This document shows, in pieces, positions 3,001-6,000 of a stretch of 64,000 bases of DNA. The stretch's first letter is position 1; every line of letters begins with the position of its first letter. Made by a program: the position numbers. Source of the DNA: Escherichia coli. Its GTDB lineage: Bacteria; Pseudomonadota; Gammaproteobacteria; Enterobacterales; Enterobacteriaceae. Location of the stretch: NCBI RefSeq assembly GCF_045037415.1, contig NZ_CP173440.1; one strand, given 5' to 3'.

Positions 3001-6000
3001 TCTATTTGGGCGTAAATCTTCAATCTGGTAGCTGAGTCGTTTGGTTAACATCAGACATGGGCGCAGCTGGCGAACAAGGGGGTTGTTCTGGCACTACATT
3101 GCGTCTGCACAGAACCGCTACACTGGACGGCGCAGAAGTGGTAACCGGAGCATATCGACAGAGGGGAAAATTCATGACTGAACTCCAGCAGATGCCGGGA
3201 TGCAGGGCAGAAACACGGCGGAAACCATCTTAAAAGTTATTAACTTACCAGCTTATTAGCCCTGGGAGGATGGGAGTAAACACGGTATAATGGTGTCGGC
3301 GCTTGAGGCTTTTTGCCTCATGATGTTTGAGTGTTTTGATGTTGTGAGGCAGAAAGAAGAAAGCCCCGTAGGACGTTAATTTTCATTAACCAACCACACG
3401 AGGCCATCTGCTTGACTAGACACCAACAGAGTAGCCTCTTAGCTGCCGTAAGGCAAGGAGAAAAAGGCTATGAAACTGCCACCTAGTAACCTGTTATGGT
3501 GTGTATTAATAGTGTGTCTCACACTACTGGCATTCACCTACCTGACCAGAAAATCGCTCTGCGAAATCCGGTACAGGGACACAACCAGGGAGGTGGCGGC
3601 TTTTATGGCCTACGAATCCGCTAAGTAGCCAACCCCGGCGGAGGGCAACCTCCGCCGTACAGGGGCTGAACTGTCTGGACATGCCTGAAGCGCTTTATGA
3701 AGGGGTTACCAGTGCGCTGGTAGCCCCTTTTTCCTGACTACATGAAATAAAAAAAGCCCGCACGACGACGGGCAAAAAAACACATTCATCTTTCTACACA
3801 TGGATTCAATGAATCGCAAATCAATATAGCACACTTCACTCCATGTGACACCCTGTCATCAGTCTGAAAACCGGACGGAGACACAGCTTTATCCTGACGT
3901 CTGCTCAATGGATGAGGGGGGCATCAATATATTAAATTACTGGCTAATTAAATCCATGAAACACAATCAGGAAAATCATTAATACTAATTTTCCTGTCGG
4001 ATTTTATACGCCGGTATGCTGCATGTTAACTGATAAAAACTCTGGATGATTCTGAATGCTGTAAATGACTAAGGAATTTATAACCGCTTTGGTATGCATT
4101 TCCCGTAAGCTGGAAATAGCTTCCGGTGATGATAAGGGGTTGATGATCGTTATTTTATTGGTATCCTGGTGTGCATGAATGAAATATTCGCTTATACCTT
4201 GCCAATATTTTTTTAAACAGGGGTTCACGAATGAAAACTCAAAACACACCAGCCACTCACAGCGACATTCTTTTTACCCATATCGTGAATATGCTGGTGG
4301 ACCTTGCTAAACATGAAGGCACTCTAATGACGTTTGAAGGCCTTCTGCGGCACGGTATCGAGGTAGATGAAGAGATGATGGATAGCATGCTGGGGGTGAG
4401 TCAGGACTCAGCTGCTCAGTGCGTGGTTCAGCTAAGGGATTGTGGTGCCATAACGAGCCCTGCGGTATATGAGATGGTTACACACGTTGAACAACTGGCG
4501 ATGCGTTTAGCCCCAGACTGGTGGAAGAAAATCGTGCCATGGTCGGTTCAGCCGCTGCGGTACTACCAGGAAGAGGCTAGGGCAAAACGCGAGCGATTTA
4601 TTGTCTGTCAGAGGGAGCGCCAGTACCCCTTCAACGTCTACGTAACAGGTCAGGTAGAATATCCGGAAGATGACCCGATATATGGCACGTACGTTACAGA
4701 AGGTACGTTCCTGGTAGGTAAAGCGAAAACCATACATGATGCCCTGGAATGCGCAAAAGAAGCTTTTACGCGGGGTGAATGGATTGTCCTCGAAGAAGAA
4801 GGGCGGGATGAGTTCGTTGACCACCTGACAGGACGTGACCAGGGGCCGGTGAGTTTTTCCGAAAGGACTATAGAGATCCGCGATAGAGGTGACAGGCTGG
4901 TGTTAACAGGCAATGCCCGCACACTGGAGTGGCACCGCCATGTAACCAGCCCTGATGAGATCGAAAAGATAAAAGCACAGCAAAAAGACCTCTATCAGAA
5001 AGCAAGCTATGAGAGTGGCTGGGACAACTACGAGACTGCACGACAGCTGCGGCGGCAAGCTGAACAGTTATCTCTCGGTTTTGTTGAAGAATGCTGGCGT
5101 AACCATCCGGAAGTAATTCAGGCGGTAGAGAAGTTCGAGTATCCGGTGTTTATAGATGAGGAGATGGCTCTTTTTAATGCAGATCAGGATGCTGGTATTG
5201 ACTGATGGTCAGCTGGTGGCCGACGCGAACATTATGAACCGGAATCGCCCGGAACAGGTGTTGCTGGGCGGTTGGCTGTCTATGGCCATCACTTTAGCCC
5301 ATTTCTCCTGAATGCAAATTCTCCGGTACTGTGACACCGGCTGAGCCAAACGAAACGGACAATCAGGAAAAATATGCTGCTCGTTACTTGTGCCCGATCA
5401 AGCTACTGCTGGGTCAAAAACTCTGTGGCATATTCAACAGTGTCGAGAGAGGCACATCCCGACATGCCAAAAAACCGGCGATCATCGACACCGTTGATCC
5501 TGAATGGGACAAGGGTTCCAGAATAGCCTATCTGGACGTTTAGTTCTTCAATCACTATGTCCCGACGCTCCAGCTGCGGCTTAGAGAAAACACGCTCTCT
5601 GTTCACGAGTATGTCCTGAATGACGGCATCGGTTGCCTGACCAGCTGTAACCGTGGGACAGGCCTTGATATCAGCTCTGAGCGCTGCTTTCGACTCAAAA
5701 TAATACAGCGCGATAAGTCCGCACAGCAGCAACACAATGCCCGCCATACCCAAACCAACACCCTTCAGGAACCTGGACATACTACATCACCAATAGCATA
5801 TGGATGAGAACAAGAAAGAAGCCAGAAATTTGCCATAAACATTCTGTGTAATCCAGTCCAGAAAATGACAATAAACAGCAGCCGGCTCCCGGCAGGCTTC
5901 TGTCTTATCAGCAACCAGGAACGATGGGTTTATCATTTTCCGCTATCTGTCGCGCTGAATTCAAAATGCCTGGAGAAGGTTGAATGGTGAATTAGAGTAA

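Follow-up and report, generated by a model that had tools for sequence, protein, structure and literature searches.

The window, that is the whole 64,000-nt stretch of DNA analysed here, carries a small toxin gene (hok), a leader frame that overlaps it (mok), a predicted antisense RNA gene (sok) on the opposite strand and a series of predicted RNA-folding elements, followed by a conserved non-coding block. The carrier is a large K. pneumoniae IncHI1B/IncFIB plasmid. The features are, in order (window coordinates):

3263–3268, plus strand: weak candidate hok -35 box, TGGGAG, with a 17-nt spacer
3286–3291, plus strand: predicted -10 box of the hok/mok promoter, TATAAT, aligned with the R1-type -10 TATGAT
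3298–3309, plus strand: tac (translational activator element), GGCGCTTGAGGC, at the predicted hok mRNA 5' end; invariant in the 4-way alignment and in 38 relatives
3299–3326, plus strand: predicted metastable 5' hairpin of the nascent transcript, formed by tac with the sequence just downstream (folding)
3353–3421, minus strand: predicted Sok antisense RNA, about 68 nt (homology to R1-type Sok, inside the RF01794 match)
3361–3367, plus strand: ucb (anti-SD), AAGCCCC, predicted to pair with the mok SD (closed form) or tac (open form)
3400–3403, plus strand: mok Shine-Dalgarno (SD), GAGG, invariant in the 4-way alignment
3412–3486, plus strand: mok leader frame, TTG start, 24 codons, TAG stop at 3484–3486 (ORF list, Pfam DUF5431)
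3428–3456, minus strand: predicted Sok promoter, -35 TTGCCT (3456–3451), 17-nt spacer, -10 TACTCT (3433–3428) (R1-type alignment)
3434–3438, plus strand: dcb, GCCTC, predicted to pair with the mok SD region in processed mRNA
3455–3460, plus strand: hok Shine-Dalgarno, AAGGAG, 9 nt before the AUG; GCAAGGAG is invariant in relatives
3470–3628, plus strand: hok toxin gene, 52 aa (Pfam PF01848, HOK_GEF)
3637–3656, plus strand: GC hairpin, GCAA loop, predicted to protect the 3' end of processed (truncated) hok mRNA (folding, R1 alignment)
3683–3694, plus strand: fbi (fold-back inhibitory element), GCCTGAAGCGCT, paired with tac in the minimum free energy (MFE) fold
3700–3735, plus strand: predicted intrinsic hok terminator, 13-bp stem, T5 run at 3728–3732 (folding, aligned loci)
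3749–3870, minus strand: conserved non-coding block adjoining the locus, outside canonical hok/sok (terminator/promoter scan, plasmid comparison)

The Hok frame was described in the earlier note as intact, and this is borne out by an uninterrupted 52-codon CDS that matches PF01848 with 68.8 bits (cut-off 22, E=3e-19). All seven residues reported to be more than 80% conserved (M1, C16, T18, L30, C31, E32 and E41) are present, and the exact peptide is already listed in a Hok catalogue (bioRxiv 10.1101/2025.08.07.668861, unique peptide 262). The newer RefSeq annotation flags the hok CDS as a pseudogene and adds a 'DUF5431 protein' of 30 aa that is spurious. The flag itself is artefactual, because the DUF5431 model matches an out-of-frame translation of hok at 3532–3624; labelling an intact hok in this way could mislead automated surveys.

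Upstream of hok, the Rfam covariance search proposed by the earlier note returned a match to RF01794 at 3297–3472 (96.9 bits, gathering score 59, E=1.2e-20) that spans model positions 1–157 of 157. The model is colinear with the sense strand of the hok mRNA and ends at the Hok AUG; although named 'sok' it in fact describes the sense-strand hok leader, which could also mislead automated surveys. The reference used for comparison was what we take to be the R1-type hok/sok sequence; it matches NC_004998.1 and other records at 100% over 450 nt, and at least 4,621 records cover at least 80% of it. Elements were mapped on a 4-way alignment, and conservation was read in 38, 35 or 48 relatives or loci, depending on the element. 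All named elements align column for column with the R1-type locus, among them the Sok promoter hexamers, the Sok stem-loop and its U-rich tail, so the second proposed check, alignment to R1 hok/sok, also came out in favour. Together with the Pfam match, these results uphold the original assignment to the hok-type type I toxin loci. The earlier note had also named an orphan or inactive hok, lacking an antisense gene or fold-back elements, as the outcome that would overturn it; all partner elements were located, and the locus is not an orphan. What did need revision in that reading concerns secondary details only, namely which hairpin ends the hok transcript and how the flanking motif is to be read.

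On the sequence, 3286–3733 is very probably an intact hok/mok/sok type I toxin–antitoxin (post-segregational killing) module of the plasmid R1 parB type, with a predicted function. The order and spacing of all elements, from the -10 box through to the terminator, are the same as in R1 parB and its IncF copies (p1658/97, NC_004998.1), as is the predicted full-length fold closed by 5'-3' pairing. The sequences themselves have diverged: Hok differs from the R1-type protein at 7 of 52 residues and the mRNAs share about 72% nucleotide identity. The mok frame begins with TTG and has 24 codons in the window, compared with ATG and 70 codons in the R1-type, the Sok promoter reads TTGCCT-17-TACTCT instead of TTGCGC-17-TATCCT, and the final T of fbi makes the closing pair G-U, unlike in the R1-type. 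The closest leaders (about 88% identity; about 89% for the hok CDS) were found in Enterobacter quasihormaechei (L010) and Citrobacter braakii (L012). Both share with the window the CTTGACTAGACACCAACAG segment, TTG mok start included, but their mok frames run to +152 (L010) and +80 (L012), against +14 in the window. Residue 5 of Hok is R in these two loci and P in the window, and it is this codon difference that makes the TAG in the window's mok frame.

The allele itself is already known: the system is a textbook one, this allele recurs without change in hundreds of sequenced plasmids, and the peptide that it encodes has been catalogued. A sequence search found the locus at 100% identity across hundreds of K. 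pneumoniae IncHI1B/IncFIB plasmids, where the identical copies are annotated as 'type I toxin-antitoxin system Hok family toxin'. Recent common descent, and not selection, accounts for the close identity of these sister plasmids. The literature on pNDM-MAR-type plasmids and on Klebsiella plasmid sRNAs near hok yielded nothing specific to the locus, and no expression data for the plasmid were found there; a phage collection searched for the locus gave no match, leaving a phage origin unsupported. What is now available is a map of the regulatory elements, at base level, for the allele carried by these clinically important plasmids, which are resistance/virulence hybrids. The E. coli K-12 chromosomal loci hokA–E belong to the same family, while the window copy is uninterrupted and plasmid-borne. 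The window Hok looks much closer to R1 Hok than to the K-12 HokA–E sequences.

A mok-like overlapping frame and a sok-like antisense promoter had been anticipated within 3300–3470, and both are present where predicted, as mok (3412–3486) and Psok (3428–3456, minus strand). The 24-codon frame matches positions 1–24 of the Pfam Mok model DUF5431 (29.9 bits, cut-off 27). Its TTG aligns with the mok ATG of R1-type loci and lies 58 nt before the hok AUG; the frame reads through the hok SD and AUG and stops 14 nt past the latter. A conserved CTAG (YUNR-type) lies within mok at 3416–3419, in the Sok target region, and the mok SD at 3400–3403 is the counterpart of G105–G108 of R1 (PMC9841398). The TTG start recurs in relatives L006, L010, L012 and L023 and the stop at +14 in L027 and L028, and only 23 of 48 loci keep a full-length mok. 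In R1, stops in mok beyond the hok AUG leave hok translation unaffected, and the loss-of-function mutations recovered in the mok start codon all fell at its second or third position (PMC9841398). The TTG-initiated mok therefore reads as a natural short variant that retains, at least in sequence, what that study states to be functionally necessary: it should suffice because the frame passes the hok start codon, which is the sole requirement. The TTG start should lower mok translation, and therefore hok translation too. Natural variation in the start codon and stop position of mok supports the experimental view that only translation as far as the hok start site matters.

The predicted Sok RNA consists of a single-stranded 5' tail of 8 nt followed by a long stem-loop and a U-rich tail (CUUUCUUCUUU), with both ends placed by homology and good to about ±3 nt. 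It folds at -25.1 kcal/mol (z -4.4) with the R1-type architecture. As mapped, the putative Sok gene covers the mok translation initiation region and has its own promoter and terminator-like stem-loop. Within the promoter, TTGC of the -35 box is invariant and TAnnCT of the -10 box is conserved in 38 relatives, at least eight of which have the identical TACTCT; this -10 agrees with the consensus at three of six positions. Neither the hok nor the Sok promoter reached the threshold of a generic promoter scan (9 of 12 hexamer matches required), and by hexamer count the R1-type Sok promoter, at 7/12, also falls below it. For hok, transcription is predicted to start at 3298, because the R1 numbering T-12/A-11/T-7 (PMC9841398) puts +1 seven nt past the -10 box.

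The 3' end of the transcript is marked by two hairpins. The first, with the full stem GGCGGAGG-GCAA-CCTCCGCC (-17.1 kcal/mol, z -5.4), confirms the GC hairpin that had been noted downstream of hok, with a correction of one base to its position (GCGGAGGGCAACCTCCGC lies at 3638–3655, not 3637–3654). Disruption of the aligned R1 stem (G345A, C358A) abolishes the truncated mRNA (PMC9841398). The second, at 3700–3733 (-22.1 kcal/mol, z -5.9), is conserved in all aligned loci and is the predicted terminator of hok itself, which the earlier note had missed. The hairpin at 3756–3773, there called a bidirectional terminator (3748–3780), is real, but its U-tail is on the minus strand only and it is not the terminator of hok. 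On the plus strand it reads A7-hairpin-A7, and because these A-runs lie on both sides it can serve as a minus-strand terminator only, which is also how the scan called it in the window and in the related locus L056. A full-length R1 hok mRNA of 398 nt would end shortly past fbi and ahead of the terminator hairpin. Because PMC9841398 does not settle that length, the primary hok transcript in the window is given a predicted 3' end only.

Folding of the hok RNA reproduces the expected switch in silico. When the first 30–35 nt are folded, a hairpin of the same shape as in the R1-type forms (-11.7 kcal/mol for the window and -13.7 kcal/mol for the R1-type), corresponding to the metastable nascent 5' hairpin of PMC9841398. 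For the full-length RNA the MFE is -188 kcal/mol (z -9.3) and the predicted structure is closed, with tac/fbi and mok SD/ucb paired; the 11 tac/fbi pairs join 3298–3304 with 3688–3694 and 3306–3309 with 3683–3686. Each of five RNAs shortened at the 3' side, with ends between 3656 and 3672, has instead an MFE fold with tac/ucb and mok SD/dcb paired (open), the latter joining nt 103–107 to nt 137–141 in every case. The same closed-to-open switch has been published for R1 (PMC9841398). For the window RNA it is a thermodynamic prediction, supportive but not decisive, because truncated R1-type RNA, folded in the same way, adopted the metastable hairpin at its MFE and not the published open form. 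Conservation agrees with the predicted pairings: AGCCCC of ucb is kept in all relatives, AGCC(T/G)C of dcb is conserved in relatives and all 35 relatives compared for tac/fbi retain the pairing. In the relatives' set, RNAalifold detected only invariant positions or one-sided (G-U) changes in tac/fbi and no double compensatory change; a candidate compensatory pair, GGTGCTT with GGCACC in Erwinia/Pantoea loci, was of uncertain placement. The window tac/fbi has a G1-U pair, as does L032, whereas most relatives have G1-C.

These elements suggest how the module might operate, the anatomy being that of the window sequence and the dynamics those of the R1 paradigm. A weak promoter (-10 at 3286–3291) would produce a stable hok mRNA starting near 3298, the nascent 5' end of which would be held in the local hairpin. 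In the complete mRNA, tac (3298–3309) would pair with fbi (3683–3694) and ucb (3361–3367) would sequester the mok ribosome-binding site (3400–3403), so that the closed molecule would neither be translated nor bind Sok. Slow 3' trimming to the GC hairpin (3637–3656) would remove fbi, after which pairing of tac with ucb would free the mok start region. In plasmid-carrying cells this region would be bound by the short-lived Sok (minus strand, ~3421 to ~3353, promoter 3456–3428) and the duplex destroyed. In plasmid-free segregants Sok would decay, ribosomes would translate mok (TTG 3412 to TAG 3486) across the hok ribosome-binding site, and Hok (3470–3628) would then be made and kill the cell by membrane damage.

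Beyond the terminator lies a block of about 120 nt (3749–3870) that is absent from the R1-type locus. It contains the minus-strand terminator (3773–3756 plus a U-run) and a promoter-like site (3851–3823); in L056 the terminator was found and the promoter-like site was not. The IncFII(K)/IncFIB(K) Klebsiella plasmids pNJST258N1 and FDAARGOS_775 plasmid 2 likewise carry hok/mok followed about 115 nt later by the block with its minus-strand terminator, but with other Hok alleles, and the block is only about 80% identical. Their backbones also differ, with a psiB-psiA leading region and MOBF as opposed to MOBH IncHI1B/IncFIB in the window. The block may specify a minus-strand RNA of about 65–70 nt, or act as an insulator. 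One extension of the R1-type reading is that the Klebsiella-plasmid hok module is larger than the canonical one, comprising a 'mini-mok' and the co-inherited block as a convergent RNA or an insulator of the fbi end, which we consider rather unlikely. Under it, the block RNA (about 65–70 nt, minus strand) may have a 3' end of the form U-run/hairpin/U-run or, in the insulator option, the fbi end of the hok mRNA may be shielded from antisense read-through; since the mini-mok ends 14 nt inside hok, coupling would be by termination-reinitiation. The candidate RNA at 3749–3816 has an unremarkable fold (z -1.2) and matched no Rfam family. It was also considered as a second regulator of hok or Sok and rejected, its duplex energies in the window and in L056 being no better than those of shuffled controls.

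Sister plasmids provide a further view of the locus. Among 40 matching plasmid records sampled at even spacing, about 15 have the locus split at 3456–3461, the hok SD site, by an IS481-family element, and four have it split near 3395–3398 by ISKpn8. The locus is dispensable for the plasmid, because such IS-split copies occur. Pedersen and Gerdes are said to have described in 1999 that several K-12 hok loci are inactivated by IS elements beside the reading frame, and the splits in the sister plasmids follow the same pattern. Tolerance of IS disruption by many sister plasmids would fit a decaying or attenuated hok, a harmless relic in which the RNA elements survive and little or no Hok is made, and not an addiction module. 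The TTG start of mok with its stop at codon 25, the G1-U pair common to only 2 of 35 relatives, the weak Sok -10 and the RefSeq pseudogene flag point the same way. However, the flag is artefactual, the Hok frame is intact with all its conserved residues, the in-silico switch is clean, and every one of these 'defects' recurs independently in other intact loci. Stops past the hok AUG are harmless in R1, and first-position changes of the mok start were not recovered among its loss-of-function mutations (PMC9841398). The IS481-family and ISKpn8 insertions are independent and each lies upstream of the hok CDS; escape from a toxic gene would account for them no less well than neutral decay, and we judge attenuation to be quite improbable.

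Functional loci of this family have been associated with other roles: hok/sok of R1 is reported to exclude phage T4, and chromosomal hokB has been linked to persistence. Such precedents, neighbours of stress or defence type (umuDC, a RES-Xre toxin–antitoxin pair and a nuclease-related gene) and the survival of the plasmid without the locus would suit a functional module serving mainly in phage exclusion (abortive infection) or stress-induced dormancy, but the anatomy is that of a plasmid-type post-segregational killing locus and a heading in a bioRxiv survey says that hok is not enriched near defence systems, making a main role other than plasmid maintenance highly improbable.

Two further features of the surroundings were considered. 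An RprA sRNA (RF00034) candidate on the minus strand at 2431–2532 was rejected at 42.2 bits against a gathering score of 70; only its 3' part (AGCUGUGUGUAGUCUUUGCCCG plus terminator) matches the model well. The CAATCAGGAAAA motif had been seen as a pair flanking hok, and the copies at 2910 and 3964 exist, but they do not form a bracketing pair and were discarded as module boundaries, since homology with other plasmids continues unbroken at the motif. The motif occurs in four exact copies, all oriented alike, at 1375, 2910, 3964 and 5360, and with up to one mismatch allowed it has six matches (two of them with one mismatch), compared with 0.5 expected by chance.

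The hok region of the window is best read as a complete hok/mok/sok type I toxin‒antitoxin locus of canonical type which, by analogy with R1, most likely functions in post-segregational killing; the locus itself is already known. An Rfam covariance search, proposed in an earlier note on this sequence, returned only one gathering-level RNA match across the 64 kb, to RF01794 ('sok'), which aligns over its full length to nt 3297–3472 of the plus strand (96.9 bits; gathering score 59). As the alignment runs from the tac sequence at the start of the model to the Hok AUG at its end, what RF01794 describes is the hok leader on the sense strand; Sok corresponds to the reverse complement of a portion of this leader. 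A plus-strand match to this 'sok antitoxin' family thus marks the hok leader, with Sok lying within it on the opposite strand. The Hok frame is intact, as first thought, and nt 3470–3628 match Pfam HOK_GEF (E = 3e-19). Compared with R1-type Hok, the protein has seven substitutions in 52 residues (R5P, S7N, V9L, I21A, G38T, H39T and G51A). It retains all seven residues reported to be more than 80% conserved, and has P5 and A21 in common with other natural homologues. A 2026 survey of Hok diversity includes this exact peptide in its supplementary files, as unique peptide 262 (bioRxiv 10.1101/2025.08.07.668861).

A sequence taken to be that of R1-type hok/sok was matched to the plasmid collection. 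It was found at 100% over 450 nt in several plasmid records, among the matches listed, and 80% or more of its length is covered in at least 4,621 records. Most of these are conjugative plasmids of Escherichia; one of them, the IncF plasmid p1658/97, was taken as the R1-type reference. When the window, this reference and two other alleles were aligned, all named elements were in register, including the mok frame and Sok promoter that the earlier note had expected within nt 3300–3470.

Elements of the hok locus (window positions)
3286–3291, plus strand: hok promoter −10, TATAAT, aligned with R1 TATGAT; the T−7 position gives +1 = 3298
3298–3309, plus strand: tac, GGCGCTTGAGGC, invariant in the alignment
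3362–3367, plus strand: ucb, AGCCCC, aligned with the reference
3400–3403, plus strand: mok Shine-Dalgarno (SD), GAGG, aligned with the reference
3412, plus strand: mok start, 58 nt 5' of the hok AUG, aligned
3416–3419, plus strand: CTAG, aligned with the reference
3434–3438, plus strand: dcb, GCCTC, aligned with the reference
3456 to 3428, minus strand: Sok promoter, TTGCCT-17 nt-TACTCT, aligned with reference TTGCGC-17-TATCCT
3455–3460, plus strand: hok SD, AAGGAG, aligned with the reference
3637–3656, plus strand: GC hairpin, GGCGGAGG-GCAA-CCTCCGCC, −17.1 kcal/mol, z −5.4
3683–3694, plus strand: fbi, GCCTGAAGCGCT, between GC hairpin and terminator, aligned
3700–3733, plus strand: hok terminator, 13-bp stem then T5, z −5.9

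The GC hairpin noticed after Hok is real, although it had been placed one base off (the quoted string lies at nt 3638–3655), and hok's own terminator had been overlooked. The supposed bidirectional terminator further downstream is not one: the hairpin at nt 3756–3773 is flanked on both sides by A-runs on the plus strand, so that only a minus-strand RNA would end in a U-tail, and the scan calls the minus strand only.

An orphan hok, with no detectable antisense gene or fold-back elements, had been considered, but the Sok promoter, the Sok stem-loop and the tac/fbi pairing were all located. TTGC of the Sok −35 is invariant in 38 non-identical relatives and the −10 form TAnnCT is kept; the window's exact TACTCT occurs in at least eight of them. 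By analogy, Sok would start at nt 3421 or 3420 and end with a U-rich tail near nt 3353. The predicted 69-nt RNA has an 8-nt free 5' tail and one long stem-loop (−25.1 kcal/mol, z −4.4), a fold similar to that of the reference Sok.

The full-length hok RNA (nt 3298–3733; minimum free energy (MFE) −188 kcal/mol, z −9.3) is predicted to be closed by tac/fbi (nt 3298–3304 with 3688–3694 and 3306–3309 with 3683–3686), with the mok SD paired to ucb, and the same architecture is predicted for the R1-type RNA. Removal of the 3' end anywhere from nt 3656 to 3672, just 3' of the GC hairpin, gives a different MFE fold in which tac would pair with ucb (nt 3301–3304 with 3361–3364, extending to 3367) and the SD region with dcb. 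This predicted change matches the closed-to-open switch known for R1, and the GC hairpin is the counterpart of the R1 terminal stem, disruption of which destabilises the processed mRNA (PMC9841398). For the first 30–35 nt, folding predicts the metastable hairpin that R1 also has. Thirty-five relatives, from Enterobacter, Citrobacter, Kosakonia, Buttiauxella, Pantoea and other genera, were also folded; RNAalifold retains the tac/fbi helix and every pair is possible in 35/35, the support lying in invariant positions and G-U changes, not in double compensatory ones. The first pair is G1-U in the window and one relative (L032), and G1-C in the others. Directly after the codon for Hok Tyr48 comes GAA (UACGAA, nt 3611–3616), a context that a 2026 preprint proposes as a TadA A-to-I editing site recoding Tyr to Cys; ACGAA lies in an unpaired internal loop of the predicted full-length fold.

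Unlike the three aligned alleles, in which mok begins with ATG, the window has a TTG as mok start; the frame stops at a TAG (nt 3484–3486) after 24 codons, 14 nt past the hok AUG, because the Hok P5-S6 codons read CCT AGT. Its 24 residues match positions 1–24 of Pfam DUF5431 (Mok) above cut-off; the out-of-frame remainder (nt 3496–3624) matches positions 29–70 only because of the overlap with hok. Among 48 loci, the mok-frame stop lies at +14 in three (the window, L027 and L028), at +74 to +119 in 21, at +152 or +155 in 23 and at +218 in one. The codon at −58 is ATG in 24 and TTG in five (the window, L006, L010 of Enterobacter quasihormaechei, L012 of Citrobacter braakii and L023), while the other 19 have neither of these nor GTG; in the leader alignment, the four Pantoea loci carry CTG at the mok-start position. 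The window variant is not unique among the 48 loci. In R1, mok stops placed beyond the hok AUG leave hok translation unaffected, mok stops before the hok start abolish toxicity, and within the mok start codon only changes at positions 2 and 3 turned up as loss-of-function mutations (PMC9841398); judged by these results, the window mok retains the known requirement, translation across the hok ribosome-binding site. The TTG start probably lowers the mok translation rate, which bears on the main rival to a functional killing locus, that hok is attenuated or inactive; we consider this unlikely.

Many near-identical plasmids carry the locus split by an insertion. A 1.09-kb IS481-family element (nt 2406–3500 of sister locus L053) sits precisely in the hok SD, between nt 3461 and 3456, where the 6 bp AGGAGA are duplicated, and in other sister plasmids ISKpn8 (IS3 family) lies near nt 3395–3398, in the Sok/mok-SD hairpin region (about nt 1500–3000 of L054). 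Of 40 rows spaced evenly through the match ranking, nine showed a near-identical, unbroken locus, about 15 the IS481-family breakpoint and four that of ISKpn8. Both insertions cut the hok coding sequence off from its promoter and leader, which shows that the locus is dispensable; the window copy is the uninterrupted form. The split loci resemble the E. coli K-12 chromosomal hok loci inactivated by IS elements.

The 601 bases around the locus are 100% identical in many large Klebsiella pneumoniae plasmids, e.g. pKpvST147B_virulence (IncFIB/IncHI1B, MOBH, conjugative), and the 52-codon ORF in those records is annotated as 'type I toxin-antitoxin system Hok family toxin' (WP_004181898.1). The region is also present in a few E. 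coli plasmids; sequence matching found a copy in no E. coli chromosome, and a search of the phage collection gave no match. Its neighbours are umuDC, a RES/Xre toxin‒antitoxin pair and a small gene of the minus strand to one side, and several consecutive hypothetical genes to the other. That the locus mainly serves some other purpose, for instance dormancy or the exclusion of phages, has only a slim chance of being correct.

On identical DNA, the newer RefSeq (PGAP) annotation flags the intact hok as a pseudogene ('incomplete', 'missing C-terminus'; window nt 3470–3624, L001 nt 6271–6425, L052 nt 371–525) and calls a 30-aa 'DUF5431 family protein' (WP_223175079.1) within the out-of-frame mok remainder, at nt 3532–3624, with an ATT start at 3532. 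An older annotation of that sequence called Hok correctly. The spurious call and the pseudogene flag are artefacts of the Mok model matching the overlapping frame. In the sister plasmid pMB18470_1 (L005) the flanks are nearly identical to window nt 3230–3297 and 3736–3990, the hok/sok core is only ~81% identical, and mok is ATG-initiated and full-length, a pattern which suggests that the cassette was swapped by recombination (allelic replacement) inside a conserved plasmid backbone.

A block of ~120 nt 3' of the hok terminator (nt 3749–3870) recurs with ~80% conservation in Klebsiella plasmids, in roughly 2,000 records when those with 60–90% identity are counted, and no sampled record has an annotated feature beneath it. 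The two plasmids of other backbones that were examined, both IncFII(K)/IncFIB(K) type, carry it as well, ~115 nt 3' of another hok allele.

Features of the block
3773–3749, minus strand: terminator, U-runs on both sides, found by the scan in both alleles
3851 to 3823, minus strand: promoter-like site, would yield a ~65–70 nt RNA convergent with hok
L055 2501–2621 and L056 2501–2621: counterparts in the two other-backbone plasmids

The terminator stem is re-formed with changed bases (GCCCG/CGGGC vs GCCCGC/GCGGGC), and the block has two invariant cores, GATTCAATGAATCGCAA and ACACCCTGTCATCAGTCTGAAAA. The scan detects no promoter in the other allele, the fold of the candidate RNA is unremarkable, and its complementarity to hok mRNA or Sok is no better than chance. 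The block could encode a small RNA, insulate against read-through from the antisense strand or merely be linked sequence.

The motif CAATCAGGAAAA, two copies of which had been seen as bracketing hok, has four exact copies, so that hok is not specially bracketed.

1375–1386, 2910–2921, 3964–3975 and 5360–5371, plus strand: (A)CAATCAGGAAAA, all intergenic, within 5.4 kb

Two further sites differ at one position and bring the total to six matches vs 0.5 expected by chance (up to one mismatch). At three copies the motif resembles a ribosome-binding site, with the ATG or GTG of a tiny ORF after it, and the third copy is half of a palindrome, CAGGAAAAT...ATTTTCCTG (nt 3968–3996). The motif may serve this part of the plasmid as a common signal for regulation or for translation initiation. 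At nt 2431–2532 (minus strand), a small hypothetical gene (nt 2488–2748, minus strand) has a 3' end and terminator that match the Rfam model of the sRNA RprA over its whole length, with a score of 42.2 bits (E = 5.5e-4) that falls short of the gathering score of 70. The conserved 3' segment of RprA, AGCUGUGUGUAGUCUUUGCCCG, and the terminator are matched nearly exactly, and the site could encode a plasmid-borne, 3'UTR-derived RprA-like RNA.
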